Below are positions 38,926 to 61,933 of a DNA stretch of 64,000 nt, piece after piece (the first letter of the stretch is position 1; each line of letters opens with the position of its first letter). The position numbers and the translations under genes were made by a program. The DNA is taken from NCBI GenBank assembly GCA_947039275.1, contig CAMQYL010000001.1, positions 36,889-100,888 of the forward strand. Reading direction: 5' to 3'. A model generated the notes under the pieces. The model worked only from the letters and a program-made list of their open reading frames with translations, did no database searches and had not been told where the DNA came from. This DNA is from an uncultured Bacteroidales bacterium. GTDB lineage: Bacteria; Bacteroidota; Bacteroidia; Bacteroidales; Muribaculaceae.

Positions 38926-38954
38926 GTTGCAGAACTCAAAAAACACGCCGCAAA

Positions 38955-39036: not shown

Positions 39037-39061
39037 AATTTAGAATTATGCAACACACTCA

Positions 39062-39532: not shown

Positions 39533-39540
39533 TAACTTTG
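39533..39540 (+). promoter_or_regulatory. candidate -7 box (TAACTTTG) for cassette A structural genes
   Basis: TAnnTTTG match 25 nt upstream of the 39565 ATG. Confidence 0.4.
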
Positions 39541-39564
39541 CCGCAAAATCATCTCACCCACGTT

Positions 39565-40005: not shown

Positions 40006-40215
40006 ATGAAGACATTAAAAGACGTAATGCCTGAATGTAATCTCACGTCAGAGGAGATTTCCGCCATTGCTGGTGGACGGCGACAGGATGTGAACACACT
40101 TCGTCAGGATCCATTTCAACAAGCAGACGGATGCTATACGGGCATTTGCTCACAGAAGCTCAACCCTAAATTTTGTGAAGGTGGTGCAATATGCACCTCT
40201 GGCATAGCTGGATAA
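40006..40215 (+). CDS. RiPP-type precursor peptide with double-glycine leader (cassette A)
   Basis: 69 aa. The leader ...LTSEEISAIAGG fits the L(-12)..E(-8)(L/I)(-7)..I(-4).G(-2)G(-1) consensus. The 45-aa core RRQDV...DGCYTGICSQKLNPKFCEGGAICTSGIAG has 4 Cys. The stop is 5 nt before the rSAM start. Confidence 0.75.
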   Translation: MKTLKDVMPECNLTSEEISAIAGGRRQDVNTLRQDPFQQADGCYTGICSQKLNPKFCEGGAICTSGIAG

Positions 40216-41711: not shown

Positions 41712-41728
41712 TCTTAACAGTCTATATA

Positions 41729-43810: not shown

Positions 43811-43913
43811 AACCCATCGCCACAGCAGCAATATAGACTGTAATATGCTGGCAATCAATGCAATATCTTTAAAATTCCACATTCATAGTCATAATCGCCT
43901 GATTTACAGCCAA

Positions 43914-44096
43914 ATACAGCCTATATTCATAAAAATACTAAAATTAAATTTTCATATCCTCGCAATATCCTTATTATCAATTAGTTACAAAGCACAAAAG
44001 CCAAATAATTTTTCCGTCAAAATAAGCAACAAACGAAAAATAGGCTCTAATTTTGCAGTTTGACATTCATTATTTTTCATCACATTCAGTAATCCG
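43914..44096 (+). promoter_or_regulatory. repeated promoter/leader cassette, copy 1 (upstream of barrel gene 44097)
   Basis: Contains ATACAGCCTATATTCATAAAAATACTAAAATTAAATTTT, AAAGCCAAATAATTTTTC (43997-44014), the -7 box TAATTTTG (44048-44055) and the leader ...TTTTCATCACATTCAGTAATCCGATG. About 80 percent alignable by eye with 46413-46594. Confidence 0.55.
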
Positions 44097-46277: not shown

Positions 46278-46412
46278 CCCACTCCCAACAACAAAAATAT
46301 ACAAACATACCACCACATCAAACCTGAATATAGATTATAAACTGCTATAAATCACCAATATAGACCCAAAGATAATAAGAAATCGGTCTTAACAGCTTGA
46401 TTATCAGATAAA

Positions 46413-46594
46413 TACAATCTATATTTTCAAAAAGACTAAAAATAAAATTTTGCACTTTCATAACTCTCTAATTTTAAGCACATTACAAAGCGCAAAAGCC
46501 AAATGATTTTTCTCTCAATATCAGCAAGAAACGGAAAATATGCTCTAATTTTGCAGTTTGACATTAATTAATTTTCATCACATTAAATAATCCG
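46413..46594 (+). promoter_or_regulatory. repeated promoter/leader cassette, copy 2 (upstream of ABC exporter)
   Basis: TACAATCTATATTTTCAAAAAGACTAAAAATAAAATTTT, AAAGCCAAATGATTTTTC (46495-46512), -7 box TAATTTTG (46546-46553), and leader ...TTTTCATCACATTAAATAATCCGATG. Confidence 0.55.
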
Positions 46595-48820
46595 ATGCAC
46601 TTTCCATACCACCGACATCGAATGAACATGTTGCGCAGGTTTCCTTGGGTGATGCAGAAGGATGCGATGCAGTGTGGCATCGCATGTCTGGCTATGGTGT
46701 GCCGACACTACGGCAAGGCTTATTCGCTGGCTGCGCTGTCGGAGATATGTTTCGCCACGGTGCAGGGGGTGTCGCTGCTGGGGCTTAAGGAGGCGGCGGG
46801 GAAGCTCGGCTTTGATACAGCGGCTCTGCGGCTGTCGGCGCAGAGCCTTGCCGACAAGCCGCTGCCGTGTATCCTCCACTGGAATCAGGAGCACTTCGTG
46901 GTGCTCTACAAGGTACGTCGAGGACGCTATTATGTGGCAGACCCGGGCAAAGGACTCGTCAAGTACACCGAGGAGGAGTTTTGCAAGCACTGGTGCAGTA
47001 CGTGTGCCGACGGAACGGATAAAGGCATAGCCTTGATGCTCCAGCCCAACGCCGACTTCGGCAAAACCATGTCGGAGGGCAGCGGCGAACGCCGTTCGTT
47101 CCGCTTCCTGATGGGTTATCTGCGGCAATACCGCCGCTATTTCACCCAGATCATCCTCGGATTGCTCGTGGGCTGCGTGTTGCAGCTCATCATGCCGTTT
47201 ATGACGCAGTGGATTGTGGATATAGGCATCAAGCACCAGGACATTGGCTTCATATGGCTTGTGCTCCTCGGCGAACTGATGATAGTGACCGGACGCACCG
47301 CCACCGACTTCATACGCCGCTGGCTGCTGCTCCACATATCCATGCGCATCAACATCTCGCTCATCAGCGACTTCTTCATCAAGCTGTTGAAGCTGCCCAT
47401 GTCGTTTTTCGACACCAAACTGATGGGCGACCTTCTGCAGCGCATCGGCGACCACTCGCGCATCCAGTCGTTCCTGACCAACCAGACCCTCAGCGTGGTG
47501 TTCACATTCCTCAGTTTCATCATCTTCGGATTCGTTCTTCTCATTTACGATGTTCTGATTTTTGGGGTGTTTATCATCGGCAGCGGCATCTATGGCGCGT
47601 GGATAGCGACATTCCTGAAGCGGAGAAAGGTGATAGACTACGAGCTGTTTGAGCAGCAGGCACGTAACCAAAACAAAGTATACCAGTTCATCACCTCCAT
47701 GCAGGAGATCAAGCTCCAGGACTGCGAGCAGCGGCGACGCTGGGAGTGGGAGGATACCCAAGCCGACCTCTTCGACGTGCAGATGAAGTCGCTGCGCCTC
47801 CAGCAGACCCAGGAAGCCGGCTCCATCTTCATCAACGAGGTCAAGAACATCGTCATAACCGTCATAGCAGCCACCGCCGTCATCAACGGCGAGATGACAC
47901 TCGGAGCCATGCTCGCCGTGCAGTATATCATAGGGCAGCTCAATTCGCCCGTAGAGCAACTGATGACATTCGTCTACTCACTCCAGGATGTGAAAATATC
48001 ACTCGAGCGCATCAACGAAATCCACGAAGGCAAAAACGAGGAGAGCGACGACCGCCAGCTCACGGCAATCACCCGACCCGACAAATCAATCACCATCGAC
48101 GGCATCGACTTCAAATATGACCCGCATGCGCTCCGCAAGACCCTCGACGGCGTGACATTCACCATACCCGAGGGCAAGGTAACCGCCATAGTGGGCGCAT
48201 CGGGCAGCGGCAAAACCACCCTTATCAAGCTGATGCTCGGCTACTACAAGGTCTCGGCAGGACGCATCGCCATAGCCGGGCATGACATCAACGAGTACAA
48301 TCCGCGCTGGTGGCGCCGGCAGTGCGGAGTAGTGATGCAGGACGGCGTAATCTTCTCCGAATCCATAGCCCGCAACATCGCCGTAGACGATGGCGAGATA
48401 GACGTAGAGCGGCTCGAACGGGCAGCCCGCATAGCCAACGTCCACGACTATATCATGGGCTTGCCCCTCAAATACAACACCCTCATAGGGCGCGACGGCG
48501 TAGGGCTGAGCCAAGGGCAGAAACAGCGCATACTCATAGCACGCGCCGTATATAAAAACCCCGACTACATATTTCTCGACGAAGCCACCAACTCGCTCGA
48601 TGCGCGTAACGAGCGCGTCATAGTCGAGAACCTTGCCGAATTTTACCGGGGCAGAACAGTCGTGGTCGTGGCTCACCGCCTCTCCACCGTCAGAGATGCC
48701 GACCAGATAATAGTCGTCGACGGCGGACGCATCGTGGAGCAAGGCACGCACACCTCCCTCACCAACCAAAAAGGAGTCTATTACAATCTCGTCAAAAATC
48801 AACTTGAATTAGGCAACTGA
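46595..48820 (+). CDS. peptidase C39 domain-containing ABC transporter (double-glycine leader cleavage/export)
   Basis: 741 aa. C39 motifs QKDAMQCGIACLAMV, ..HWNQEHFVVLYKV.. and VADPGKG. Six TM helices. Walker A GASGSGKTT, signature LSQGQKQR, Walker B IFLDEAT. The start is ambiguous (46595, 46622 or 46628). Confidence 0.92.
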   Translation: MHFPYHRHRMNMLRRFPWVMQKDAMQCGIACLAMVCRHYGKAYSLAALSEICFATVQGVSLLGLKEAAGKLGFDTAALRLSAQSLADKPLPCILHWNQEHFVVLYKVRRGRYYVADPGKGLVKYTEEEFCKHWCSTCADGTDKGIALMLQPNADFGKTMSEGSGERRSFRFLMGYLRQYRRYFTQIILGLLVGCVLQLIMPFMTQWIVDIGIKHQDIGFIWLVLLGELMIVTGRTATDFIRRWLLLHISMRINISLISDFFIKLLKLPMSFFDTKLMGDLLQRIGDHSRIQSFLTNQTLSVVFTFLSFIIFGFVLLIYDVLIFGVFIIGSGIYGAWIATFLKRRKVIDYELFEQQARNQNKVYQFITSMQEIKLQDCEQRRRWEWEDTQADLFDVQMKSLRLQQTQEAGSIFINEVKNIVITVIAATAVINGEMTLGAMLAVQYIIGQLNSPVEQLMTFVYSLQDVKISLERINEIHEGKNEESDDRQLTAITRPDKSITIDGIDFKYDPHALRKTLDGVTFTIPEGKVTAIVGASGSGKTTLIKLMLGYYKVSAGRIAIAGHDINEYNPRWWRRQCGVVMQDGVIFSESIARNIAVDDGEIDVERLERAARIANVHDYIMGLPLKYNTLIGRDGVGLSQGQKQRILIARAVYKNPDYIFLDEATNSLDARNERVIVENLAEFYRGRTVVVVAHRLSTVRDADQIIVVDGGRIVEQGTHTSLTNQKGVYYNLVKNQLELGN

Positions 48821-48824
48821 CACC

Positions 48825-49025
48825 ATGGCATCAGACAACGAAAAAATAGAGCTGCGCAGCGAGAAAGTCCGCCACCTCATCTCCGAAATCCCCCCGGCAC
48901 TCGTCCGCTGGGGCATCGCCATCATAGCCATAATCACCGCCGCCCTCCTCCTCGCCGTCTGCCTCCTCCCCTATCCCTACTCCGCCGGCGAATCCATCCT
49001 CCGCCACCTCCTCGACTCGATATAG
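48825..49025 (+). pseudogene. truncated HlyD-family periplasmic adaptor (N-terminal 66 aa only)
   Basis: MASDNEKIELRSEKVRHLISEIPPALVRWGIAIIAIITAALLL... matches the N-terminal cytoplasmic tail plus TM of Bacteroidetes HlyD adaptors that follow C39-ABC genes, which are normally about 400 aa. The frame ends at 49025, and the 49113-49353 inverted repeat begins 88 nt downstream. Confidence 0.5.
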
Positions 49026-49112
49026 TCCCCAGAGGCGGAAATCATATAGACGACGCGATACAATGGTGTGCATTTAAGATATATCGTATCAAATCGGATG
49101 AATAAGCATGTC

Positions 49113-49353
49113 GGAAGTCCCGAAGGGATGAGCCTATACTTAACCGTGGATGAGGATATGGCATAGCCATGACGAGTCCACGGTGGGACAAAGAGAAAGA
49201 TGTGAGTCCTGGAGGGACGGATTTGTGGTGGATACGCTACCATAAACTCGTCCCTCCAGGACTTGGTCTTTAGTGTGCCTTGCGCCGTGGACTCGGACGG
49301 CTATCGCCGCCGCTCATCCACGGTTAAGCATAGGCTCATCCCTCCGGGACTTC
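49113..49353. repeat. about 240-bp near-perfect nested inverted repeat (MITE-like)
   Basis: GGAAGTCCCGAAGGGATGAGCCTATACTTAACCGTGGATGAG pairs with CTCATCCACGGTTAAGCATAGGCTCATCCCTCCGGGACTTC. Inner pairs are GAGTCCACGG/CCGTGGACTC and GAGTCCTGGAGGGACG/CGTCCCTCCAGGACT. Confidence 0.8.
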
Positions 49354-49508
49354 TATGGTGTTTATCTATTATTTTGCATTGTTTTGACATGCACACGCAT
49401 CAAATTACCAAATCGTTAATTGAACAGCATTGTGACGCACGAGGTTACGGTTTCTATATTTTCAGCGCATACATTTGCTGAATCATTGTGATTGACGGGG
49501 CTTTTGTG

Positions 49509-49516
49509 TAACTTTG
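49509..49516 (+). promoter_or_regulatory. candidate -7 box (TAACTTTG) for regulator B
   Basis: TAnnTTTG match in the same context as 36860-36867. Confidence 0.4.
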
Positions 49517-49524
49517 TTCCCCGT

Positions 49525-49551
49525 TGTAGGGACATGCCATGGCATGTCCGC
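49525..49551. repeat. single REP unit (type 1) in the predicted 5' leader of regulator B
   Basis: TGTAGGGACATGCCATGGCATGTCCGC. Confidence 0.8.
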
Positions 49552-49580
49552 TTTCCCAGCCCCGACCAGTCACACTCCAG

Positions 49581-51242
49581 ATGAGAAATCTTGCCATCCT
49601 CTTCATAATCGCAATCGTCGCCCTGTCGGCGGCATGCAGCCGTCACGCCGCCACCGAGGCAGCCCTTGACCGCGCCGACTCCCTAATGTCAGAGCACCCC
49701 GACTCCGCACTTGCCATCCTCACCGCCATCGACGGCACACCCCTCCCCCAAGGCTCCGGACTCCAAGTCCGCTACGCCCTGCTGCTGACCCAGGCAAAAA
49801 CGAAAAACCACATAATAGAGACCAACGATTCACTGATATCCATTGCTAATGACTACTATTATAAGGAAGGGGACGAGTTTCTACTAATGAAAGCACGATT
49901 TTATTTAGGCAATATTCTCTATCATCAGAAAAACTACCCTAACTGCATGCTCAATATGTTTATGGCTTACGAGTATGCAAAGGAAATAGATGATTGTTTT
50001 TGGATCGGTATGACAGCCCGCGGGCTCGGAGACGCATATAAAGAGACTTTCAACAGCAAAGAGGAAGTGGCATACTACCACATCGCAGCAGATGCATTCG
50101 CCAGCTACGGCAAACAAGCGTTTATTGATTACAGCCTCCTTTATCTTGCAATTGCTTATTGTGATGCCGGTGAATACGAGTCGGGGATTGTCTATGCATT
50201 GGAGGCACGGGACTCTGCCCTGACGCATGGAGACGAGCCTTTGCTGATCGAGGCTTTAAGAGCTGGCGGCATGAACGGACTGGGTGCAAAAAATTACAAG
50301 ATAGCAATCTCATCGTTTGAAACCCTGTGCAAAAACCACACCTCCACTCGTGAAGATTCCCTCTACCTCGGATTGCTGTATCTACGTACTGGCGCAGTCC
50401 ATAAAGCGACAAACATCCTGAACAAAATCAAAATAAATGAAGATGGTGTGGGCGACTGGTTCCGTTATGAGTTGTATAAAGAACTGGATTCAATACCCCA
50501 AGCCCTAACCGCTCTTGAGAATCTTGAGAATTACGAAAACTCTACTTTTAATTCACGCATCAATCAAGGACTGACAGGTGTGTGCGTTGATTATTATGAT
50601 ACGCAAAAACGCGCAAAAGAGGAAGATATTAAACGGTCTCATGTCATAAATTGGGCAATGCTCTTCCTTCTCATTTGTCTCATAACCATATCATTGGCAT
50701 ACATCCTCCGCTATAAGAAAAAGAAACAGTCAGAGTTGGACACAGCTACGATAATAGCAGAAAATCTACGGGATATCTTATCAAGAAAGGAAGAGGAGTA
50801 CAGGCAGGTCAACACTGCATTTACATCTGCAAAAGAGACCATTGACAGCCTCTTGGATGTAAGATACGAGGAATTTGATATGTTGTGTCAAGAAATGTAT
50901 AGCTCTTCTAACAGGTCTTCAATCCAAAAGCAAATCGCGAGCAAGCTTAATATGATGGTAGACAGCTTTTCCTCAGACATCAAGAAAATTAAAGAACTGC
51001 AAAAGTTTGCCGATTTACATCACGACAATATAGTATCAGAACTGAAAAAAGACCTGCCATCCATAAAAGACATTGATCATAACCTGTTCCTCTACGTCGT
51101 GTTGGGTTTCTCAACTCAGGCAATTGCACTGTTTCTAAAAGCTGGCAAGATCGATTCAATCTATGAAAGAAAGCGTCGTCTCAAAGATAAGATAAAACAG
51201 CTTGATGCCACGAAAGCCCAGAAATATCAAGCGTATCTATGA
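49581..51242 (+). CDS. membrane-spanning regulator: lipoprotein signal + TPR-like domain + TM + coiled coil + LuxR/GerE-like HTH (paralog B)
   Basis: MRNLAILFIIAIVALSAAC lipobox. The first roughly 80 aa are highly similar to paralog A (..RHAATEA.(I/L)DRADSLM.EHPDSAL..L.AIDG..LP.GS.L..RYALLLTQA..). TM VINWAMLFLLICLITISLAYIL (about 50644-50712). C-terminal ..LFLYVVLGFSTQAIALFLKAGKIDSIYERKRRLKDKI... Confidence 0.65.
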   Translation: MRNLAILFIIAIVALSAACSRHAATEAALDRADSLMSEHPDSALAILTAIDGTPLPQGSGLQVRYALLLTQAKTKNHIIETNDSLISIANDYYYKEGDEFLLMKARFYLGNILYHQKNYPNCMLNMFMAYEYAKEIDDCFWIGMTARGLGDAYKETFNSKEEVAYYHIAADAFASYGKQAFIDYSLLYLAIAYCDAGEYESGIVYALEARDSALTHGDEPLLIEALRAGGMNGLGAKNYKIAISSFETLCKNHTSTREDSLYLGLLYLRTGAVHKATNILNKIKINEDGVGDWFRYELYKELDSIPQALTALENLENYENSTFNSRINQGLTGVCVDYYDTQKRAKEEDIKRSHVINWAMLFLLICLITISLAYILRYKKKKQSELDTATIIAENLRDILSRKEEEYRQVNTAFTSAKETIDSLLDVRYEEFDMLCQEMYSSSNRSSIQKQIASKLNMMVDSFSSDIKKIKELQKFADLHHDNIVSELKKDLPSIKDIDHNLFLYVVLGFSTQAIALFLKAGKIDSIYERKRRLKDKIKQLDATKAQKYQAYL

Positions 51243-51415
51243 TAAATCCATGTCAATCAACATATTAGCAATAAATGCCTGATATTCAACACATTAAGAG
51301 AAAGCCAAAAAATTTTTTCATGTTTACTCATAATTCATTGACATTCAATCTATTACAAATTTGAAAAGCCAAACGAAAAACAGGCAAAAATTCGTTCTGT
51401 AGCCTCTTTTTGACA

Positions 51416-51423
51416 TAACTTTG
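51416..51423 (+). promoter_or_regulatory. candidate -7 box (TAACTTTG) for cassette B structural genes
   Basis: TAnnTTTG match 17 nt upstream of the 51440 ATG. AAAGCCAAAAAATTTTTTC at 51301-51319 resembles the cassette motif. Confidence 0.4.
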
Positions 51424-51439
51424 CACAAAAACATGGCAC

Positions 51440-51820
51440 ATGAAATCACTCGTATCAATTTTTATCTCTCTCGTCATTTGCATGACCACATCATTGGCTA
51501 TGACCGCCAGTGAAAACAATTCGACCCCAAAAGCCGACAAACAGGCTGTACTAAAGCCACAGAATCCCACATCCAACAGACCCATGAAGCCGTCCTCAAG
51601 GTCATTGGTCTGCATATACACACAAGGCTATCTTGAGATAGAAATGCCTATTAATACGGAGTACCTCGATGTCACCATCAGCGATGATAACATTCCGGTC
51701 TGGTCAGGCACAGTCACACAGGACGAGCCATCAGCCGACATTCCCGTCCTCTACGGAGAGCATACCATCACGTGCATTACCGATGGCGGACATATCTTTA
51801 CTGGATATCTATCATTTTAA
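51440..51820 (+). CDS. small secreted protein, DUF3244-like (paralog B)
   Basis: 126 aa with signal peptide MKSLVSIFISLVICMTTSLAMTA. The C-terminal block DDNIPVWSGTVTQDEPSADIPVLYGEHTITCITDGGHIFTGYLSF is shared with paralog A. Confidence 0.7.
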   Translation: MKSLVSIFISLVICMTTSLAMTASENNSTPKADKQAVLKPQNPTSNRPMKPSSRSLVCIYTQGYLEIEMPINTEYLDVTISDDNIPVWSGTVTQDEPSADIPVLYGEHTITCITDGGHIFTGYLSF

Positions 51821-51829
51821 GAGCGGCAT

Positions 51830-53101
51830 ATGAAAGCGAGTGCTTACAACTATATCGTCCCTAACGGAGATAAGACTATTTTCTTCAATGGAATATCGGA
51901 ATCATTTTTCGAGATTCCAAATGAAAGGGCGGAAATATATGCCGAAATCATCCATAATCCGGCATCCTATGCCGACGATTTCCAGTGGTTTCTTGACAGG
52001 ATGACAGATAAAGGATTTGTCCTTGACGATGACACAGATGAAGAAGAGCTATTAGAGAAAAAGTTTCAAGCTACGCTTTCTGAAAACCTCCTCCATGTCA
52101 TGATTTTGCCCACATATCAGTGCAATTTACGATGCTGGTATTGCGTCCAGAACCATAAGGATATGACGATGTCAGATGAGACAGTTGAGCAGGTCAAGGG
52201 GATGCTGGCTCAAAAAATAAAGGACAGCAAAATCACCGATGTCAGGATTTCATGGTTTGGAGGCGAACCTCTGCTTGGTTATGATACCATAATAGACATA
52301 ACTTCTTATGTCAAAAGACTCACATCAGATTACGATAAATCTTTTATCTGTGACATAACCACCAACGGCACATTGCTCAATAGGGAGCGCATCGAGGCAT
52401 TGCGTGAGGCTGGAGTCACAAGTTACCAGATTACCATCGATGGCGACAAAGAGACTCACGACTCCATCAAAGTCCTGAATCATGGATCAGCATACGACAC
52501 CACTGTGGAGAACATAAACATCATCACAGAAACTACAAGATGCACTCTGCGCTTCAATTACACACATGACAATCTCAGACCTCAGTCCATAGTCGACAAT
52601 CTGACTGCGAGACTCAAACCCGAAAACCGGCATAATATCACATTCCTATTATATAAGGTATGGCAAGAGCCACAGAACCGCATATGTGATGACGAAGTGG
52701 AGAGTCTGATCACGCTGAGCAATGGCATCGGCATCGTGAGCCAGTTGCCTACATGCAATCTGTGCTACGCCGACTGTACAAATTTCAATTGCATATTCCC
52801 TAACGGCAATGTGGGAAAATGCGACAATGAGTCGCCCATGGCAGCAAAAGGGAGCATTGATGGCGGAGATGTCACATGGAGCGGTGACATCAGTGCGCAT
52901 ACCCCTGCATTCCTTAACCATAAGTTTCCATGCCGGAAATGCAGATATGTGCCTGTCTGCTGGGGACCATGTGTGGCTAAAAGAGCTGTCATGCTAAACA
53001 ACGACGGTGTAGGGCAATGTCAGTATGCCGATAAGGATGATGAAATGAAGAGATTTATAATTAACAGATGTTCCAATCTGAAAAGGACAGAGATTGTATG
53101 A
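51830..53101 (+). CDS. radical SAM/SPASM domain peptide maturase (cassette B, different subfamily from cassette A enzyme)
   Basis: 423 aa. The CxxxCxxC motif is CNLRCWYC (nt 52121-52144), followed by ..SWFGGEPLL... The C-terminal SPASM Cys clusters are ..CNLCYADCTNFNCIFPNGNVGKCDN...CRKCRYVPVCWGPCVAKR... Confidence 0.88.
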   Translation: MKASAYNYIVPNGDKTIFFNGISESFFEIPNERAEIYAEIIHNPASYADDFQWFLDRMTDKGFVLDDDTDEEELLEKKFQATLSENLLHVMILPTYQCNLRCWYCVQNHKDMTMSDETVEQVKGMLAQKIKDSKITDVRISWFGGEPLLGYDTIIDITSYVKRLTSDYDKSFICDITTNGTLLNRERIEALREAGVTSYQITIDGDKETHDSIKVLNHGSAYDTTVENINIITETTRCTLRFNYTHDNLRPQSIVDNLTARLKPENRHNITFLLYKVWQEPQNRICDDEVESLITLSNGIGIVSQLPTCNLCYADCTNFNCIFPNGNVGKCDNESPMAAKGSIDGGDVTWSGDISAHTPAFLNHKFPCRKCRYVPVCWGPCVAKRAVMLNNDGVGQCQYADKDDEMKRFIINRCSNLKRTEIV

Positions 53102-55272
53102 TAAGATTTTTAATGAATTGCATCATTATCGCCGCAGTGATAGCGGTGGCGAATCCCGCTTACGGTCAAGACGTGGAGACTGCCGAGATGGCTGACTCCA
53201 CGCGGAGTGTCACAAACGAGCCTGACACCCTGGCATCCAAGAGATTAGACGAAATAGTAGTGACCGCCGAGCTTTTGAAACGTCAGGGCAACGAGGACAT
53301 CATCACAGTAACCAAAGCCATGCGCGAGGGGACTCGTAATGCCGGGGAACTGCTGGGGAGAATAAACGGCATGTTCTACAACCCATTGAGTACCGACCTG
53401 CAATATATGGGGTCAAAGAATATCCTCATCTTAGTGGATGGAGTGGAGAAAGGGGCTGGCTACATCAAACGCCTACGTCCTGAGCGATTTGACAAAATCA
53501 CCATCACAAATATGCCTACAGGCATCTATGCGAGCTATGATGCCGTCATAGACCTGCACACACGTCCGCTCTACACTGGTTATGAGGGTGTCGTGCTGAC
53601 AGAAGCGGTGATAGTACCCGGAGACAGAAACGGCGATGGCGACAACTTAAGAAAATCACGCAACGAGGGGCAATTCACATATACGAGAGAAAAATTCAAC
53701 ATCGATGTCTCCGCCGGTTATACGTTTAACCAACAGGGACTGAGCGACTATTTCGATAAGGAATATCCTCTCAACGGACTCAAGGAGACAACATTGGAGA
53801 CATCAGACAAATCGCCTGACAAATATATACGCAGCAACCGTTATTCTGCCGAAGTGGCAGCCGACTACGACATCAACCGCCGCCACTCCATATCTGCAAA
53901 AATCTCGCTCGCACCTTCCTCTGACCATGACAGATACGACTACAGGATAAAACGCGATTTCACCGACCTGAATATCACAGATATCGTGTCGGAGTCACAA
54001 AACAGCGACATCAGAGACCGACTGGATGTGCTTGCCGGGCTATGGTACAGAGGCAGAGTGTCGGGGTGGAGACTCAACTCCAACCTCACCTATACTAATA
54101 TCGGATACAATCGCTGTAATGCGACAGGCAGGTCTTCAGGCTATCATAATACCGACAATCGCAAAGTATCATCACAGTATTTTACAGGAGGTCTGGAAGC
54201 CAAACGCCAGAGCAACAATCAGAAATGGATATTCACATTGTCAGATGATTTCATCCTTTCAAATTTCAAAGAGGACAGAGCGGAAACAGGCAACAGGCTC
54301 TCAGAAAGCAACGATTTCCGCAACACATTCAACGCCAGTGCCGATTACCAGGTCAACAATAAATTATCACTCGGATTCAATGCTGGTTTCTCGGTGTTCA
54401 GAAATTCATATAACACTGCCTCCGATACACATTTCACGCCCAAAGCCGGATTTCAGGCGATGTGGATACCCTCCGACAATGTATTTATGCGTCTCAACTA
54501 CTCTGCATCCACCCGATATCCGGCACTGTCGGGCCTGCAGGATTACGGACAGTTTACTGATTCGCTGATGTACTCGTCAGGCAATCCTGAACTGAAACCA
54601 TCGCTTATACACGACATATCCCTGACAGCGACGTTCCTCAAAAGCATATCCATAGAAGGACGGTACACCCATACATCCGACGGCGTGTTCAGCCACTTTT
54701 CACCAGCCTTCGGGATGATTCCGTCAGGTGCCACCACCTACTATACTATGAGCCTGCCGGTCAACGGCACCAAAGACCGATGGAGCGTCAATCTGACCTA
54801 CTCCAAAGCGTTCGGACCACATTGGCAGCTTTCCCTCACAGGCACCCTGGTCGGCGAGAGAGCCAAGTATGGCGATGATGTCACTTCCAAAGTTCTCCCC
54901 CAATACGACTGGTATGTGCTGTATCAGACCATGAAAGGCAGCCTACAGTTCTATCTGAGCGGAGCCATGATTCAGACAACTTACATCACACCTCAATCCG
55001 ACATACGGGACTGTGTGGATGTATACGCATTGTCCGTCTCCAAATTCTTGTTCAATAACCGGCTACAGATTCTCGGCATGTGGTATATCCCCATACATCT
55101 CACTGAAGGTGGAGCACATGGTGGCATCACATCCCCATCCTACAGCACCCGATATTGGGCTGACAACAATTTCCGTTTCAACAACATGTTTCAGATCTCG
55201 ATACAATACCGCTTCAACGGCGGCAAATCAGTCAAAAAATACAACCGTAACAGCGAAACGGTAGATATCTAA
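53098..55272 (+). CDS. TonB-dependent-receptor-like outer membrane beta-barrel protein (OMP_b-brl_3-like)
   Basis: 724 aa from the ATG that overlaps the rSAM stop (ATGA at 53098-53101), with signal peptide MIRFLMNCIIIAAVIAVANPAYGQ and family motif ..RYPALSGLQDYGQFTDSLMYSSGNPELKPS... Confidence 0.8.
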   Translation: MIRFLMNCIIIAAVIAVANPAYGQDVETAEMADSTRSVTNEPDTLASKRLDEIVVTAELLKRQGNEDIITVTKAMREGTRNAGELLGRINGMFYNPLSTDLQYMGSKNILILVDGVEKGAGYIKRLRPERFDKITITNMPTGIYASYDAVIDLHTRPLYTGYEGVVLTEAVIVPGDRNGDGDNLRKSRNEGQFTYTREKFNIDVSAGYTFNQQGLSDYFDKEYPLNGLKETTLETSDKSPDKYIRSNRYSAEVAADYDINRRHSISAKISLAPSSDHDRYDYRIKRDFTDLNITDIVSESQNSDIRDRLDVLAGLWYRGRVSGWRLNSNLTYTNIGYNRCNATGRSSGYHNTDNRKVSSQYFTGGLEAKRQSNNQKWIFTLSDDFILSNFKEDRAETGNRLSESNDFRNTFNASADYQVNNKLSLGFNAGFSVFRNSYNTASDTHFTPKAGFQAMWIPSDNVFMRLNYSASTRYPALSGLQDYGQFTDSLMYSSGNPELKPSLIHDISLTATFLKSISIEGRYTHTSDGVFSHFSPAFGMIPSGATTYYTMSLPVNGTKDRWSVNLTYSKAFGPHWQLSLTGTLVGERAKYGDDVTSKVLPQYDWYVLYQTMKGSLQFYLSGAMIQTTYITPQSDIRDCVDVYALSVSKFLFNNRLQILGMWYIPIHLTEGGAHGGITSPSYSTRYWADNNFRFNNMFQISIQYRFNGGKSVKKYNRNSETVDI

Positions 55273-55293
55273 CACCTCTAAAACCTTTAATTT

Positions 55294-55488
55294 ATGGAAC
55301 ACTCTATCATCAAAAAAATCGTCGCGACCCCAGAACTACTCAGCGAGATGGAAGCCCTCGAAATCCGCGGAGGCATCCGTAATAACGGAGATGATATCTA
55401 TGCTTTAGGCAGATGTCAGGTTTATTCTGGCAATTGTGTCCCCGGATGCGCCTGCAAAATTGAACCAGACAGACCTGGCTTAAAATGA
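55294..55488 (+). CDS. RiPP-type precursor peptide with double-glycine leader (cassette B)
   Basis: 64 aa. The leader ...LLSEMEALEIRGG fits the double-glycine consensus. The 37-aa core IRNNGDDIYALGRCQVYSGNCVPGCACKIEPDRPGLK has 4 Cys. It is followed by a strong hairpin. Confidence 0.7.
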   Translation: MEHSIIKKIVATPELLSEMEALEIRGGIRNNGDDIYALGRCQVYSGNCVPGCACKIEPDRPGLK

Positions 55489-55499
55489 GCCCCTTGACA

Positions 55500-55543
55500 T
55501 TCCTCGTAATGCAAGACATCCAATGTCTAAGCATTACGAGGAA
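55500..55543 (+). terminator. long hairpin (terminator/attenuator candidate) directly after precursor B
   Basis: TTCCTCGTAATGC-A-AGACAT-CCA-ATGTCT-A-GCATTACGAGGAA, followed by TGATTTTCTT. A near-copy lies at 59174-59215. Confidence 0.55.
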
Positions 55544-55662
55544 TGATTTTCTTATCCACTACAATTATATTCCACAATCTCTGTTATATTTCGCCCCATG
55601 AGGTATTCGTCCTCTCTACGAAAAAGCATATGACCCATGCCCTATAAACGAAAAAGAGTTTT

Positions 55663-55728: not shown

Positions 55729-58074
55729 ATGTCAGCTGTCTTTGGAAATCTCAAACGTATTCTTTCCCTTTTAATTTCTCTCATCTGGTGTGTCATTACA
55801 ACCCTTGCAGATGTCACGGGGACAGTGATTGATGATAATCAGACTCCGGTTGAATTCGTCAATGTGATATTGATGGATTCACGTGACTCTTTGTATATCA
55901 ATGGCACCACAACGGACTCGGCAGGACGTTTCTCTATCATCAATCCTGACGGACGTGGAGATATGCTCAGATTGTCGTGCATCGGTTATCAGGAAATATA
56001 CCGCAAGTTGAATAATCATGATGAAAATGCTGGAGTTATCACAATGACACCCAAGGGCCATCAGCTCGGCAGCGTGACTGTCACAGCTGACAGACCTATG
56101 TTTTACCAGGACAAAGGTTCTCTTGTCACCAATGTGCAGGGGACTGTACTGGGTGATTTATATTCGACAGATGATGTGTTGGCGCAGATACCAGGGATGG
56201 TACTAACCCCGACAGGAGCATTGGAGGTGTTCGGTCTCGGCAATCCGATAATCTACATCAACAACCGGCGCATAAGCAGCAATGCTGAATTACAGCAACT
56301 GACACCCAAGGACATCAAAAGCATACAGCTCATCACCAACCCTGGCGCGAGTTACGATGCCAGCGGACGTGCCGTGCTTAAAATAACGACTATACGCAGA
56401 GGCGATGGATTATTAATGGAAATCGGGGGAGATTTCCGCCAAAATGAGCGATCGAGTTTCGGCGGAAACGTCAATATCGGTTACAGACATAACGGCGTGA
56501 ACTTTTCAGCAAATTACGGCTACGACAGTTATGCGATGCAGGCTCGGCAGCCTTCCGGCAAGGAGTTGCATCTTGACAGCCACACGTACACATTTATACA
56601 AGATACTGACGGTGACGGCAGAGAAAAAGAACATACATGGGCGTTAAAAACCGACTATGAAATCAATGACCGACATGTAATAGGCATATCGTGGGATGCC
56701 TCCGCGTCAAAAAGAGATGATCACAGACTCTCTGAAATGGATTATCAGCTTGACAGCGAAGCTGCGCAACAGAGTCATGTAATCAACGATGACTCTAACA
56801 AAACCCATTACAATCATGTCAACGTATTCCACAATGCCCAGTGGCACAAACAATTGACATCGCGTCTCAATCTGGATTACGTATCCAATACAAACCGATA
56901 CAATCAAATCTCTGACGAGACCAATGAGGGAGTCCACCGACTCTCGCCTTTCTCAGGGAAAAGCTCACTGGATATCTACGGCGCAAAATTTGCCATGGAC
57001 TACCAGATCAGTGATGCCCTGAGCATGTCGGCTGGTGCCGACTACAGCCATGTCGGCAATGATGGAAACATGTTCAGCGATACCGCAGTCATCCCATCGT
57101 CAGATTACACAAATTCCGAAGATAGGTATGCGGCATATGCCGAACTTAATAGCACCTTAAATCAAATATCTATAGGAGCTGGCATCCGCTACGAGTATAT
57201 GAAAATGGATTACAACGACCATCTTGACAGCGAAGCCAATGTCAGACGGCGTTTCAGCAACGTCTATCCATCCCTATCACTTTCGCATAACTGTAAAGGC
57301 TGGGGCAATACCCTCTCGTTTTCGTCACGCACTCGGCGTCCGTCATTCAGTCAGCTAAGCGCCATGAGCTATTACCAGAACCGCTACATGTATCAGCACG
57401 GCAATCCGCTTCTTGTACCATCCACATCCTATATCCTCCAATGGGACTCTGGTTACAAATTTGTCAATTTCTCGCTTGGATATACATATACCAAAGATTT
57501 CATCACCAACGATATGTACACGATTGATTATGACGGTACCACACAAATCATAAGTTCATATGCCAACCGAGATAAGGTACAGTATATCAAAGCAAACGTG
57601 ACTATTCAAAAAAACATTGCATGGTGGAGACCGACCCTCTCTGCCGGAGTCAACAAACAGTTTTTCCAGACCGACTATCTTGGTGAAACAATCAACTGCA
57701 ACCGTCCCCAATACTATCTGACTTTCAACCAGTACTTCACCCTGCCTAAGTCAACGACGATTTCCGCTTACTATTACTTCAACAGCGGAGGCGATCAAGG
57801 CAGCCTCCGCTTCAAGCCGTACCAGATGCTTAACATAGGCATACAAAAATCCTTCCTCAACAAACGTCTGACCGTACGTCTGAAAGCAAACGATATTTTC
57901 CACACCATGAAATTCAAGGTCTCCGAATATCGAGGAAATATACACTTCTGGCAGACGGAAGACTATCGTATGTGGAACTATTCCGTAAGCATCACCTATC
58001 GTCTCAACAAGAAAAAGAAAATCAAATATCGAGGTGACGAATCAATCTCAGATGAAATCGAACGCATAGATTGA
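55729..58074 (+). CDS. TonB-dependent-receptor-like outer membrane protein with CarboxypepD_reg-like N-domain (OMP_b-brl_3-like)
   Basis: 781 aa. ..DVTGTVIDDNQTPVEFVNVILMDSRDSLYINGTTTDSAGRFSI.., the plug-like ..IKSIQLITNPGASYDA.., and family motif ..RRPSFSQLSAMSYYQNRYMYQHGNPLLVPS... Confidence 0.85.
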   Translation: MSAVFGNLKRILSLLISLIWCVITTLADVTGTVIDDNQTPVEFVNVILMDSRDSLYINGTTTDSAGRFSIINPDGRGDMLRLSCIGYQEIYRKLNNHDENAGVITMTPKGHQLGSVTVTADRPMFYQDKGSLVTNVQGTVLGDLYSTDDVLAQIPGMVLTPTGALEVFGLGNPIIYINNRRISSNAELQQLTPKDIKSIQLITNPGASYDASGRAVLKITTIRRGDGLLMEIGGDFRQNERSSFGGNVNIGYRHNGVNFSANYGYDSYAMQARQPSGKELHLDSHTYTFIQDTDGDGREKEHTWALKTDYEINDRHVIGISWDASASKRDDHRLSEMDYQLDSEAAQQSHVINDDSNKTHYNHVNVFHNAQWHKQLTSRLNLDYVSNTNRYNQISDETNEGVHRLSPFSGKSSLDIYGAKFAMDYQISDALSMSAGADYSHVGNDGNMFSDTAVIPSSDYTNSEDRYAAYAELNSTLNQISIGAGIRYEYMKMDYNDHLDSEANVRRRFSNVYPSLSLSHNCKGWGNTLSFSSRTRRPSFSQLSAMSYYQNRYMYQHGNPLLVPSTSYILQWDSGYKFVNFSLGYTYTKDFITNDMYTIDYDGTTQIISSYANRDKVQYIKANVTIQKNIAWWRPTLSAGVNKQFFQTDYLGETINCNRPQYYLTFNQYFTLPKSTTISAYYYFNSGGDQGSLRFKPYQMLNIGIQKSFLNKRLTVRLKANDIFHTMKFKVSEYRGNIHFWQTEDYRMWNYSVSITYRLNKKKKIKYRGDESISDEIERID

Positions 58075-58174
58075 CATATCACAATGTGCAATATAGGTGT
58101 TAAATCATTAAAAATCAGAGTTTTACCTTTAATTATTCGTTATTATAGATATAACGTCCTAATTTGCAGCCGAT

Positions 58175-58355
58175 TACAATCTATATTTCAAAAAAGCCTA
58201 AAAATTAAAAACCAACTATCTGTAACACATTGATTATATGAATGTTACATAACGTCAAAGCCAAATGATTTTTTCACCCAAACATGGCTCCAAGAATCAA
58301 AATTCAGTATCTTTGCGAATTAACTACCTGTTTTTATCAATCAACACAATCTATC
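58175..58355 (+). promoter_or_regulatory. repeated promoter/leader cassette, copy 3
   Basis: TTACAATCTATATTTCAAAAAAGCCTAAAAATTAAAAACC, AAAGCCAAATGATTTTTTC (58258-58276) and -7 box TATCTTTG (58308-58315). Confidence 0.5.
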
Positions 58356-58733
58356 ATGAGTGTATTTTTTAAGAGTATTGCTGCTATAACGTTAGGCTTG
58401 TTGGCAGTATCGTGTGGCAGCGACAATGACGAGGATGTGATGCAGCCTATGAGCCTGTCGGATGGTTCTGTCAAAATGTGCCTTCGAGGAGATACACAAT
58501 CCATCAGCATCAGTGGCGGCAGCGGCAACTTCACTGTTGCGGTCAATGGTAATTCCGTCACTGCTGCCTGTGACGGACGCATCATCAGACTCACGCCCGA
58601 AGCATTTGGCGATGCCACGCTTACGGTAACTGACGCTTCAACTGGAGCAACGGCACAGTGCACCGTCAACGTCGGTAAATCGTTTGCCGAATTCCGTCCT
58701 TCATACACCATCGACCCGTTTTTCGGCGAGTAA
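58356..58733 (+). CDS. small lipoprotein with Ig-like (Big_2-like) fold
   Basis: 125 aa from the internal ATG, with lipobox ..LGLLAVSCGSDND and ..ISISGGSGNFTVAVNGNSVTAACDGRIIRLTPEAFGDATLTVTD... It ends at TAA 58731-58733, in the same frame as the next ORF. Confidence 0.55.
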   Translation: MSVFFKSIAAITLGLLAVSCGSDNDEDVMQPMSLSDGSVKMCLRGDTQSISISGGSGNFTVAVNGNSVTAACDGRIIRLTPEAFGDATLTVTDASTGATAQCTVNVGKSFAEFRPSYTIDPFFGE

Positions 58734-58745
58734 AGCATCCTCTAC

Positions 58746-59153
58746 ATGGACTGCGACTTGCAGTCATCTCCGCGCCAGTGGGTAATTACCACCCTGAACG
58801 GGCATAAACTCCACGAAGGGACTTTCACCACGACATATATGCGAGACGAGACCGTGACCAACCAAGGCGAGGATTACAACTTCGCCCTTTTTACCCTTGA
58901 AATGAACGAGGGCAGCACTACACACCATTACATAGCAGGCGACATGATGACCATCGCAGACGGCACTCCCTGGTGGGCAATCCTATTCCCCGGCACAGGC
59001 TGGCACGCTCTGAACCAGACTGCACTTGATAAAGCCCTGACACGCTCAACAATGCCCACGACCATCATCGGCATCTCATTCTTCGGCACCGATGCTGACC
59101 TGCTCAACCCCTTGGTGTCATGGCGAGCCACAGATCCAGTTCCCCTCCCATAA
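58746..59153 (+). CDS. hypothetical protein (same frame as the upstream lipoprotein; possibly its detached C-terminal domain)
   Basis: 135 aa with no signal peptide and no recognised motif. The ATG is 12 nt after the upstream TAA, in frame. Confidence 0.4.
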   Translation: MDCDLQSSPRQWVITTLNGHKLHEGTFTTTYMRDETVTNQGEDYNFALFTLEMNEGSTTHHYIAGDMMTIADGTPWWAILFPGTGWHALNQTALDKALTRSTMPTTIIGISFFGTDADLLNPLVSWRATDPVPLP

Positions 59154-59173
59154 TCCCCATACACCCATCCCCA

Positions 59174-59219
59174 TCCTCGTAATGCAAGCAATCCAATGTC
59201 TCAGCATTACGAGGATTTT
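59174..59219 (+). terminator. second copy of the long hairpin (terminator/attenuator candidate)
   Basis: TCCTCGTAATGC-AAGCAATCCAATGTCTC-AGCATTACGAGGA followed by TTTTCC. It shares the stem and most of the loop with 55500-55543. Confidence 0.55.
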
Positions 59220-59325
59220 CCTTTCCCATTGTAATTTTATTCACAACCCTTGTTATGTTTTGACTTCCTGTAACGTATATATTTTGGAGTTTTACACGAG
59301 ATTTCATATCACCAACAAACAAATC

Positions 59326-61620
59326 ATGAATCGGACAATACTTGCAGCAGCATTTTGCCTAATAATGCTTACGGCTTTCGGGCGTGAGATTACAGGGAGT
59401 GTCGTATCACGGACTGACGGTGAGGGAGTCATCGGGGCGTATGTGTCAATGTTTGAGAGGGATTCGTTGTTACAGGTATTGCAATCAGATGCGGAGGGGT
59501 TGTTTTCATTAGATGTTACTGATTCGGCGAAGTGTTCGCTGACCGTTACAGCATTGGGATACAGGGATGTGGAGATTGATTTGCTGACGGATACAATCAG
59601 CAGCCCCCTGAAAGTCTACATGGATGAAAATGACGGCATCGCATTGGGCGAGGTGGTTGTGTCGGCTGACAAGAGCCAGATGGTCAGGCGTACTGCCAAC
59701 GGGCAGATATTCTATCTATCCAAAGATGCCAAGGAGCTTAAAAATCCGTTTCAGGCGTTACAGGAAGTGCCGCTGCTGATTGCCGACGAAGCTAATTCCA
59801 CAATCAGGATGCTTGACGGCAAAACACCCCTCATACTGATAGACGGCAACAGGGTCAACTCCGGCATAGCACCGCTAAACCCTTCGGAAATCGAATCGGT
59901 GGAGGTTGTCAATGTCGTCCCGGCACGCTACCTGCAAGAAGGCTATGACGGCATCATAAACATCAAACTGAAAAAGCATGCCGGACCCTACTTGTGGGCA
60001 GAAGCAGCGACACGTCACGAGCTACCTCTACACAACGGTTTCGGAGTAGGCTACTTCGAAGTGGGGAATCAGAAGTACAGTCTCTACGGTCGTGGAGTCT
60101 ACAATTATACCCATAACGATGACACCGACCGCGACACATGGCGCGAAGCTCCCACATACTCCCAGCAGTTCACATCGGCAGAACGCAATAACGGACACTC
60201 ATGGATCGGCGAACTGCTGTTTAAGTGGAACGTTGCCCCCAAAGACTATATCGCCATCCATGGATATATCAACCGTGACCACACTTCATCTCACACCACT
60301 GGCGCAGGAGAATATACAGCAGATGACTGTCAGCCTTACAGCTTCACTGCCGACGATCGAAACGACTGCACTGTAGTGACCTCAAGCCTCTATTACAAGC
60401 ACACCTTTGAGCCATCGTCAGACAACATCCTGGAAGTCAGAGCCGCATATAACCATAACAGCAACATCCTTGACTCGTGGCGCTCGGAACAGTATGGATC
60501 GACTGTCTCTCCTCTCGCATCATCGTTTGACAATCTGCGCAACTCAGGCAATGTGGACGTGGACTATTCAAAATCCTACGCATCGGGCATCTCCATATCG
60601 TTTGGCAACCACCTATCCCTACAGTCCGATAGGATACATCAGATAAGCTCTCCCTACCCCATCTTCCATCATCGGAAACTCAACGAGTACCTGTTTGGCT
60701 CAGTCAGTGGAAAGATTCATAACATCTATTATCTTGCCTCGCTCGGATTGGAGATGATATGGCTCAAAGCCGGAGAAACCGACAACGACTATATGCGTCC
60801 ACGCGCATCCCTTAGCGGCACATGGGCTATCACCAGCAACAATTCGCTCCAACTGGGCTATACCCTCTCTAACGAAACGCCTCAGATATCCGAACTCAAT
60901 CCATACGACACCTCCACAGATCCGTTGCTCGTAGTCAGTGGCAACCCCTATCTCAAGCCGCAGACCACTCATCGCGTGAACCTCAACTATACCTTCAATC
61001 GTGGCAATCTTTACCTGCAGCCATCGCTGTCATATCGCGTAATGTCTGACATGATAGAGCCTGGAGGATATATGGTCGGCGATGTCTACCATAGCACATA
61101 CCTCAACACCGGACATTTCTCCCAGCTGACAGCTTCAATCTATGCAAGCTACCGCTTCCGATGGGGACGCATAGGCATCGGAGGTGGATGGAGCGAGAGC
61201 TATTACACGGATGCCCCGGCTCGGGGAGCATTTCTGTCAATGATGGATTTCAATGCCCGCGCAGGCAGATTTTCATTCTACGCCAATGTCGACTACACCA
61301 ACCGTGAAATCGGCAAGACCTCTGTGGTGCGCAATCTCCGTCCCACCATGGCACAGGTGCAGGTAAACTACAACATAACCCCCGATTTCTACATAGCCCT
61401 CTGCCTACAGAACATCACAGGCGAAGTCCGCACCCGCACCGTCTTAGATGACGGAGCCTACCACAGCATCACCCGTACAAACTACCGTGACCGCAACCTG
61501 CGCCCGTGGATTCTCCTCCGCTACACCTTCCGCAAAAACGCCCACCGAAAAATCGACCTCGGCAACAACATCCTCCGCGCCGAGGAAGAAGGCATCCGCC
61601 TGACCCCCTCCCCCAAGTAA
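59326..61620 (+). CDS. TonB-dependent-receptor-like outer membrane protein with CarboxypepD_reg-like N-domain (OMP_b-brl_3-like)
   Basis: 764 aa from the internal ATG, with signal peptide MNRTILAAAFCLIMLTAFG, ..ITGSVVSRTDGEGVIGAYVSMFE...DAEGLFSL.., and family motif ..ETPQISELNPYDTSTDPLLVVSGNPYLKPQ... Confidence 0.85.
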   Translation: MNRTILAAAFCLIMLTAFGREITGSVVSRTDGEGVIGAYVSMFERDSLLQVLQSDAEGLFSLDVTDSAKCSLTVTALGYRDVEIDLLTDTISSPLKVYMDENDGIALGEVVVSADKSQMVRRTANGQIFYLSKDAKELKNPFQALQEVPLLIADEANSTIRMLDGKTPLILIDGNRVNSGIAPLNPSEIESVEVVNVVPARYLQEGYDGIINIKLKKHAGPYLWAEAATRHELPLHNGFGVGYFEVGNQKYSLYGRGVYNYTHNDDTDRDTWREAPTYSQQFTSAERNNGHSWIGELLFKWNVAPKDYIAIHGYINRDHTSSHTTGAGEYTADDCQPYSFTADDRNDCTVVTSSLYYKHTFEPSSDNILEVRAAYNHNSNILDSWRSEQYGSTVSPLASSFDNLRNSGNVDVDYSKSYASGISISFGNHLSLQSDRIHQISSPYPIFHHRKLNEYLFGSVSGKIHNIYYLASLGLEMIWLKAGETDNDYMRPRASLSGTWAITSNNSLQLGYTLSNETPQISELNPYDTSTDPLLVVSGNPYLKPQTTHRVNLNYTFNRGNLYLQPSLSYRVMSDMIEPGGYMVGDVYHSTYLNTGHFSQLTASIYASYRFRWGRIGIGGGWSESYYTDAPARGAFLSMMDFNARAGRFSFYANVDYTNREIGKTSVVRNLRPTMAQVQVNYNITPDFYIALCLQNITGEVRTRTVLDDGAYHSITRTNYRDRNLRPWILLRYTFRKNAHRKIDLGNNILRAEEEGIRLTPSPK

Positions 61621-61726
61621 AAATATATCCCTCTCACATTAAATATAGACCATATATATCTGAATGTCAGTGTATTATGTGCCATACCCCATGTATATTA
61701 CTCTTAACACATTGATTAATAGAAGA

Positions 61727-61933
61727 TTACAATCTATATTTTGAAAAAGACAAAAATTAATTTCTCAGCAGTCTATAACCATCTGATTATTACATCATTA
61801 CAAACCAGTGATGCCAAATCATTTTTTGCCATATTTTCGTTAAACGCTTAATATAACCGTAAATTTGTGCTCAAATAATCTTCCATTAAAGACCAGAAAC
61901 CACCTTCAAATTCAGGTCTGATATATCGCATAA
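61727..61933 (+). promoter_or_regulatory. repeated promoter/leader cassette, copy 4
   Basis: TTACAATCTATATTTTGAAAAAGACAAAAATTAATTTC, ATGCCAAATCATTTTTTGCC (61811-61830) and -7 box TAAATTTG (61860-61867). Confidence 0.5.

Follow-up and report, generated by a model that had tools for sequence, protein, structure and literature searches.

What is encoded by the 64-codon open reading frame (ORF) that closes the second radical SAM (rSAM) cassette of this Bacteroidales locus, and does the strong hairpin directly behind it belong to that gene? We consider both questions for a stretch of 64,000 nucleotides, called the window here, together with related loci (prefix L) and contigs from public sequencing runs (prefix X). 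It seems quite likely that the ORF encodes the ribosomally made precursor of a modified, Cys-rich peptide (RiPP), as the last gene of an operon that runs from a small secreted protein through a radical SAM/SPASM enzyme and a TonB-dependent-transporter-like protein to the peptide. The precursor family is uncharacterised but of a known kind, that of the radical-SAM RiPPs, and has an unusual, conserved transporter partner.

The precursor gene and its family

The features of cassette B and its surroundings are collected in Table 1. Translation of the precursor B gene gives MEHSIIKKIVATPELLSEMEALEIRGG/IRNNGDDIYALGRCQVYSGNCVPGCACKIEPDRPGLK (leader/core), identical to the peptide proposed in a preliminary description of this DNA. 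Read directly, the leader MEHSIIKKIVATPELLSEMEALEIRGG has L-12, S-11, E-8, I-4, G-2 and G-1, which are the residues of the L(-12)S..E(-8)...I(-4).GG pattern put forward there. The features of a double-glycine leader, namely Gly-Gly at -2/-1, hydrophobic residues at -4 and -12 and Glu at -8, are all present and are kept across a 44-member alignment of the family. The core spacing C-x6-C-x3-C-x-C could likewise be read from the sequence, and the view that core B is unlike the core of precursor A (40006-40215) held up, BLASTP showing no similarity between the two. Precursors A and B were the only ORFs with GG leaders in a six-frame scan of the window. The exact precursor B peptide is indexed in 81 blocks of a public assembly collection.

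Table 1. Coordinates of cassette B, the neighbouring exporter genes and the repeated element in the window
Feature	Position	Strand	Remarks
C39-peptidase ABC exporter (PCAT)	46595..48820	+	Peptidase_C39 7.5e-35, ABC_membrane, ABC_tran
Single-pass membrane protein	48825..49025	+	66 aa; directly 3' of PCAT
TPR protein	49581..51242	+	N-terminal lipoprotein-type signal, one internal TM helix; paralogue of 36865-38568
Small secreted protein	51440..51820	+	126 aa; paralogue of C-terminal part of 39427-39933
Radical SAM/SPASM enzyme B, presumed maturase	51830..53101	+	423 aa, N-terminal RRE-like domain; Pfam Radical_SAM 2.7e-19
Barrel 1, TonB-dependent-transporter-like outer-membrane protein	53098..55272	+	724 aa; Pfam OMP_b-brl_3
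Precursor peptide B gene	55294..55488	+	ATG start, 64 aa, stop codon 55486-55488
Precursor B leader codons	55294-55374	+	27 aa, GG at end
Precursor B core codons	55375-55485	+	37 aa, 4 Cys
~105-nt element, copy 1	55496..55600	+	hairpin + T-rich segment ending TGTTATATTTCG; upstream of transporter-like gene 55729-58074
Imperfect 21-bp hairpin	55498..55545	+	starts 10 nt past peptide stop codon; UGAUUUUCUU after it
~105-nt element, copy 2	59169..59270	+	upstream of transporter-like gene 59326-61620

The precursor B ORF is a real, conserved gene under selection. Among four homologues of 70 to 93% identity, the leader is nearly unchanged and all four Cys are invariant, while the remaining core is variable. 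The window and L008 ORFs differ by 18 synonymous and 5 non-synonymous changes (pS 0.456, pN 0.035), of which 8 and 0, respectively, fall in the leader; the comparison with L010 gives 15 and 9. Between two of the peptide alleles from the loci called type 2 below, pN/pS of the core is about 0.83. The preliminary description had said that lack of conservation of the ORF in related loci would speak against it; we find the ORF kept there and under purifying selection.

It is exceedingly improbable that positions 55294-55488 are instead a chance open frame, or an annotation artefact between barrel genes. Such a reading could point to the lack of any match to the peptide in Pfam and NCBIfam, to an overlapping antisense ORF of 64 codons and to the synonymous excess that is also seen in the antisense frame sharing third codon positions. 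However, the ratio of synonymous to non-synonymous changes is best in the sense frame among all six, the ORF has a canonical GG leader, and the family is kept across distant Bacteroidales, tied to the same enzyme family. Both a chance ORF and the antisense ORF were rejected, given the sense-frame ratio and the comparative data, which contradict them.

A profile built from five close sequences and run against 1.84 billion representative proteins gave 43 matches at E<=1e-3, about 38 of them peptides of 52-89 aa. The family leader reads x-P-[TS]-x-E-L-L-S-E-M-E-x-L-E-[IV]-x-G-G, and the core has [YH]-[AF]-[LV]-x-x-C, then [GA]-N-C-[VI]-x-x-C-[GA]-C, followed by a variable tail rich in Pro, Asp, Glu and Lys. 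The strict core motif, of the GNCVxxCxC type, occurs in 29 of the 44 aligned members. Median lengths in this alignment are 26 aa for the leader and 44.5 aa for the core, with 5 Cys, and the core is net negative in most members (38/44). The profile search gives the breadth of the family; a pattern scan with peptide alignment found one distant locus in genome contigs and three loci in metagenome contigs, its tblastn confirmation step dropping relatives that share the leader only. Some loci have more than one precursor: a tandem pair stands behind the barrel of L010 (6535-6738), and L024 has two rSAM-peptide pairs (4820-5143 and 6684-6908), one with a very Cys-rich precursor of 107 aa.

No entry in Pfam, NCBIfam or the PDB covers the family peptides, and we did not find the family motifs printed in the literature searched, where TIGR04463 likewise goes unmentioned. 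This Cys-rich GG-leader family, whose hosts are gut Bacteroidales, is thus undescribed in the curated libraries and papers searched.

The radical SAM enzyme and the conserved module

The presumed maturase, rSAM B, has a CX3CX2C motif (C98/C102/C105) and the SPASM cysteine set C312, C321, C331, C368, C371, C377, C381 and C397, all invariant in 33 homologues. In its AF2 model (pLDDT 93), residues 7-60 form three strands and then three helices (beta3-alpha3), with pLDDT >94. This is the arrangement of RiPP leader-recognition (RRE-like) domains, and leader binding is predicted from it. The best fold match is the thioether synthase CteB (TM 0.66, full-length), followed by TigE, SuiB, SkfB, ChlB and anSME; CteB is also the best sequence match in the PDB (1.7e-16). 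The best similarities in NCBIfam are to maturases of Cys-rich peptides (TIGR04463, CefB, Clo7bot, PapB and CcpM) and to ranthipeptide and SCIFF maturases, all far below cut-off, the top score being 126 bits against a required 525; the other curated families also remain below their own cut-offs. Membership in a curated maturase family, those compared being TIGR04463, CefB (NF038107), PapB (NF047865), CcpM (TIGR04068) and SCIFF (TIGR03974), was rejected on these scores, and so a thioether type of reaction is suggested by analogy only. Relatives of rSAM B fall into at least 120 clusters, the best 120 all at >=43% identity, and the names of some place them in Muribaculaceae, Bacteroides or Bacteroidales.

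Cassette B runs in the order rSAM, barrel, peptide. The first two genes overlap by 4 nt (ATGA, with the barrel start over the rSAM stop), and 21 nt separate the end of barrel 1 from the start of the peptide gene. The preliminary description had placed the peptide downstream of rSAM and barrel, and the gene coordinates agree. The same order recurs in L008, L010, L016, L017, L019 and L023, and is therefore a common layout of the family, not an unusual one.

These six loci belong to a set of ten independent ones collected through rSAM B homologues of 45-87% identity, the others being L015/L022, L018, L024 and L025. A family peptide adjoins the rSAM gene or follows the barrel in all ten. It lies immediately 3' of the rSAM gene in L015/L022 and L018, and immediately 5' in L024, with its two rSAM-peptide pairs, and L025. 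A barrel-1 homologue is found in 9/10 loci; in L017 its position is held by a homologue of the 739-aa protein of cassette A. The PCAT gene adjoins in half of the loci (5/10). Precursor and enzyme are thus inherited together in 10/10 sampled loci, with the type-2 loci, which have the peptide without the enzyme, as the exception. Together with the conservation of the ORF and the purifying selection on it, this bears out the earlier proposal of a GG-leader precursor belonging to the second rSAM cassette. The conserved module is made up of rSAM, peptide, barrel and PCAT, whose co-occurrence is established.

Barrel 1 is itself a member of this module, which the preliminary description had missed. 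Its AF2 model (pLDDT 84) comprises a signal peptide, a disordered linker, a plug-like domain (residues 60-155) and a barrel (160-708). The best 50 Foldseek matches listed from the PDB were all TonB-dependent transporters, each at probability 1.0; Cir, the receptor of colicin I and microcin V, came first, and ChuA, PirA and PfeA were also among them. A TonB-box-like LDEIVVTA follows the signal peptide, and Pfam gives a faint Plug match (0.13). As modelled, barrel 1 is of the plug-plus-barrel TonB-dependent transporter type; its dependence on TonB is putative.

The PCAT is the only one in the window and lies between cassettes A and B. It matches PCAT1 (4ry2, 2.6e-106) over its full length, and also ComA, and its C39 domain is intact, with the Q21...C27 motif read. 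A protein in its 90% cluster bears the name Candidatus Amulumruptor sp. (Muribaculaceae), which gives a hint of the host. The small membrane protein 3' of the PCAT has 66 aa in the window, 67 aa in L024 (12811-13014) and 47 aa in L017 (11846-11989); those of the window and L024 have clearly similar sequences. This protein could be an accessory conserved with the PCAT, and perhaps a counterpart of the "TM protein" found in bacteroidetocin regions. Pfam matched neither it nor the C-terminal part of the TPR protein, in which no HTH domain was detected, and the ideas of an "HTH regulator" and an "MFP stub" in these small regions would be a reading of the sequence only. Genes similar to that of the small secreted protein precede rSAM in L016, L024 and L025. 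A scan of 36.9-61.6 kb of the window showed no gene for a membrane-fusion protein (MFP) or of TolC type.

The TPR protein could have a regulatory role. With the small secreted protein it forms a pair that is seen twice in the window (36865-39933 and 49539-51820) and also in L005 (13095-14741), at the head of cassettes with rSAM A, rSAM B, a C10 protease or another barrel; the pair gives the impression of a control or accessory unit that is used repeatedly. Just 5' of both TPR genes of the window lies a palindromic repeat, GTTGTAGGGACATGCC(A/G)TGGCATGTCCGC (36860-36907 and 49509-49556). Contig depth over 49524-49558 is 20-30x that of the flanks in public runs, and many contigs stop there, which suggests a dispersed, REP-like element. 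The repeat overlaps the 5' extension of the TPR ORF, so that the TPR genes would start at a downstream Met (49581 for the second).

The 739-aa protein of cassette A (41591-43810) has no Pfam match and is 31% identical to the protein of L017 (7280-9409) that sits at the barrel position behind an rSAM-B-type enzyme. Given this likeness, cassette A may follow the same logic of an rSAM enzyme plus an outer-membrane protein.

Strain variation and the element behind the peptide gene

The samples behind the related sequences were from human and mouse gut. In seven loci of sister strains (type 2: L001-L005, L020 and L021), the peptide lies behind the same barrel gene, with leader and Cys intact, but without the rSAM. 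The counterpart of window 49018-53222 (TPR protein, small secreted protein, rSAM and the barrel's first 40 codons) is missing from them. In its place are TPR and small-protein alleles of divergent sequence, together with genes for a C10 cysteine protease, which has its I69 propeptide, and for a protein of 261 aa. From the barrel through the peptide to the hairpin, nucleotide identity to the window is about 92%, and the barrel gene is split in 5/7 of these loci. The peptide can therefore persist without that enzyme nearby, a point likewise missing from the preliminary description. The arrangement may equally be a decaying cassette or one served by an enzyme encoded elsewhere.

A third arrangement was seen on contigs of X2-X4, X11 and X13, where 49023 and 53097 are linked by 25 other bases. 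The PCAT and 66-aa genes thus run into the barrel, without the TPR, small-protein and rSAM genes. The X13 sequence diverges from 55299 on and has a different gene behind the barrel. The 261-aa gene of the type-2 loci also has a counterpart in the window, where two ORFs in one frame (58284-58733 and 58746-59153), parted by the stop codon 58731-58733, together (58284-59153) match the intact gene. Related strains have C where the window has T at 58731, which makes the window copy a nonsense mutant. Contig depth of the 261-aa gene in X12 and X13, both from mouse gut, is 5-15x that of the barrel gene.

We turn now to the hairpin, which the preliminary description had taken as a feature often seen behind highly expressed RiPP structural genes, where it would stabilise the transcript or partly terminate it. 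That a hairpin follows the peptide gene is correct: its 21 bp are arranged as 15+6 pairs, with an RNA MFE of -29.8 kcal/mol and z = -7.1, and 0 of 200 shuffles were as stable. As a hallmark of this structural gene, however, it did not hold. A copy of 93% identity lies behind a different gene (about 55501-55542 for the first copy, 59174-59215 for the second), the peptides of L008 and L010, the closest relatives of rSAM type, have no such hairpin behind them, and the ~105-nt element that contains it precedes two unrelated transporter-like genes.

We consider it about an even chance that the hairpin is not for the peptide gene and belongs to this ~105-nt element of the downstream transporter-like genes. 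The element could combine a terminator with a promoter, act as an operator palindrome or mark a recombination junction. The element copies are ~85% identical, as against 20% protein identity for the CarboxypepD_reg/OMP_b-brl_3 genes behind them. Among the related loci fetched, the hairpin is confined to the near-identical L011-L014, with both copies, and to L001-L007, L020 and L021, with a single copy behind the peptide. Past the hairpin, the DNA of the type-2 loci continues as the window does from 59215 on, which means that the 3.7 kb between the copies is present in some strains and absent from others. This variation, the place of the second copy and the lack of a hairpin in L008 and L010 would all fit such an element. 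Against it, a hairpin 10 nt past the stop codon with a U-rich run behind it resembles an operon-end terminator, and strong hairpins of terminator type, with other sequences, also follow the peptides of L018 and L019. A role as operon-end terminator is plausible. The stem is stable and has UGAUUUUCUU after it; a simple consensus scan for terminators did not list the hairpin, for which a bulge in the stem is the probable reason. Neither reading contradicts the other. In L016 and L017, the PCAT gene begins within a few bases of the end of the peptide gene. Rfam gave nothing meaningful for the hairpin or the ~105-nt element, and the outer stem is invariant in all copies, so covariation is uninformative either way.

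The transcript data comprise one metatranscriptome contig of 173 nt (X1, 55154-55326), which runs from the 3' end of the barrel gene into the ORF and covers 33 nt of its start; X2-X4 and X11-X13, runs that may contain DNA, gave only contigs of related strains with other arrangements.

Other repeats and receptor genes surround this region. Downstream of the peptide is a tandem array of at least four very divergent CarboxypepD_reg + OMP_b-brl_3 (TonB-dependent-receptor-like) genes, namely 55729-58074, 59326-61620 and others beyond (L011 16641-18956 and 19079-). A further intergenic element, of ~125 nt, is present in four copies of 71-83% identity (43889-44013, 46387-46511, 58149-58273 and 61702-61826), 3' of the 739-aa gene and of three barrel-type genes.

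A possible pathway and its relation to known systems

We infer the steps of the pathway, from leader binding, modification chemistry and GG cleavage to transport direction and biological role, along the following lines. The 27-aa leader (xPELLSEMEALEIRGG) would be bound by the RRE-like N-terminal domain modelled for rSAM B, and the enzyme would then modify the 37-aa core. By analogy with the nearest enzymes, the modification would most likely be cross-links from the Cys sulfurs of the conserved C...GNCVxxCxC motif to carbons of other residues (thioethers of the sacti- or ranthipeptide type). The C39 domain of the exporter presumably cuts after Gly-Gly, and the exporter would pump the core over the inner membrane. 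At the outer membrane, the TonB-dependent-transporter-like protein may handle the peptide, either releasing it, much as Oar does PopC, or taking it up again, as MbnT does methanobactin.

Several observations stand against this account: the type-2 loci have the peptide without the rSAM and several of them have a broken barrel, no MFP- or TolC-like gene is seen in the scanned part of the window, and the maturase scores are low. The peptide might instead be an unmodified, or only disulfide-bonded, class II bacteriocin-like product, exported and cleaved by the PCAT as bacteroidetocins are, with the rSAM acting on another substrate. The type-2 arrangement is the main evidence for such a bacteroidetocin-like product. 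Bacteroidetocins also come from Bacteroidales and have a GG leader and four Cys, and a peptidase-ABC exporter and a small TM protein accompany them (PMC6671954); in the window, too, a small TM protein lies 3' of the PCAT. We nevertheless regard an unmodified product as unlikely. A family peptide adjoins the enzyme in every one of the ten rSAM-family loci, over a range of 45-87% enzyme identity. The leader, at 27 aa and not 15-16, is the most conserved part of the peptide, as expected of a recognition sequence, and no thiol oxidoreductase was found among the scanned neighbours. Furthermore, the net charge is negative in 38 of the 44 family cores, as against +6 and +2 for bacteroidetocins A and B (PMC6671954). 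A modified RiPP remains our preferred explanation, and the natural swap of rSAM for protease beside an unchanged peptide offers a ready comparison for the contribution of the modification.

More tentatively, and with the odds somewhat against it, one can imagine that the product is a secreted, rSAM-cross-linked, mostly anionic peptide that does not act as a conventional antibiotic. Its dedicated TonB-dependent transporter would release it or return it to the periplasm, where it might hand over a metal that it has bound, or be sensed by the TPR domain, on the periplasmic side, of the membrane protein whose gene heads the cassette. If true, this would amount to a circuit for peptide signalling, or one of metallophore type, without a described precedent in Bacteroidales. 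Through this locus one can define a precursor family with clear motifs in leader and core, an rSAM family that goes with it and a fixed outer-membrane partner. It provides a testable entry to RiPP chemistry in Bacteroidales, a dominant order of the gut flora, and a way to study how the cargo of a PCAT crosses, or recrosses, the outer membrane where MFP and TolC genes are not at hand.

How does this locus compare with systems already described? The SCIFF, ranthipeptide and sactipeptide systems (CteA/CteB of thermocellin, PapA/PapB, TIGR04463, CefB and CcpM) share with it a small, Cys-rich precursor with a leader and a radical SAM/SPASM enzyme with an N-terminal RRE-like domain, CteB being the closest among solved structures. 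The window differs by leader and core motifs of its own, which no model matches, by its Gram-negative Bacteroidales host and by the TonB-dependent-transporter-like gene fixed in the cluster.

Nearer in host is the GG-Bacteroidales system, which has a TIGR04148 maturase, a TIGR04149 precursor and a TIGR04150 pseudo-rSAM, and which likewise combines a GG leader with an rSAM maturase. Membership in it was rejected: TIGR04149 does not match the window peptide and gives a weak match (0.026) to 1 of the 44 family members, and rSAM B reaches 54 bits with TIGR04148, far under the cut-off of 300. Cassette B also has no pseudo-rSAM, unlike that system. The bacteroidetocins (class IIf, Bacteroidales; PMC6671954) resemble precursor B in their GG leader, about four Cys, mature length of about 40 aa, peptidase-ABC exporter and small TM protein. 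They have a leader of 15-16 aa and a thiol oxidoreductase, in contrast to the longer leader and the rSAM here; the window adds a transporter-like outer-membrane protein (OMP), and the cores of its family are mostly anionic and hydrophilic. Membership was rejected here as well, on leader length and the lack of an oxidoreductase among the neighbours scanned.

For the transporter, two precedents come from further afield. The MbnA RiPP cluster of methanobactin carries its own TonB-dependent transporter, MbnT, which re-imports the secreted peptide (PMC3621798). Those operons share with the window a RiPP cluster with such a transporter, but use the MbnBC enzymes, which are unrelated and not of the rSAM type, and a MATE pump as exporter where the window has a PCAT; metal binding by the window peptide would be conjecture. 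In Myxococcus, Oar, an OMP of the TonB-dependent transporter type, is needed for release of PopC (PMC6434023). By functional analogy only, since the substrate there is a protease and here a peptide, this points to a possible exit for PCAT cargo in a locus without MFP or TolC.

Genome mining has described Bacteroidales rSAM RiPP clusters with PCAT and OMP genes, without MFP and in some cases with TPR genes, and by the same survey no class I bacteriocin, and no modified ribosomal peptide, from Bacteroidales has been characterised (PMC10352776). The OMP of those clusters was not identified there as being of the TonB-dependent transporter type, and the motifs of our family are absent from the text supplements of that study; any correspondence between its clusters and our family is putative. 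From the known rSAM RiPP systems, the family described here differs by its fixed TonB-dependent-transporter-like partner.
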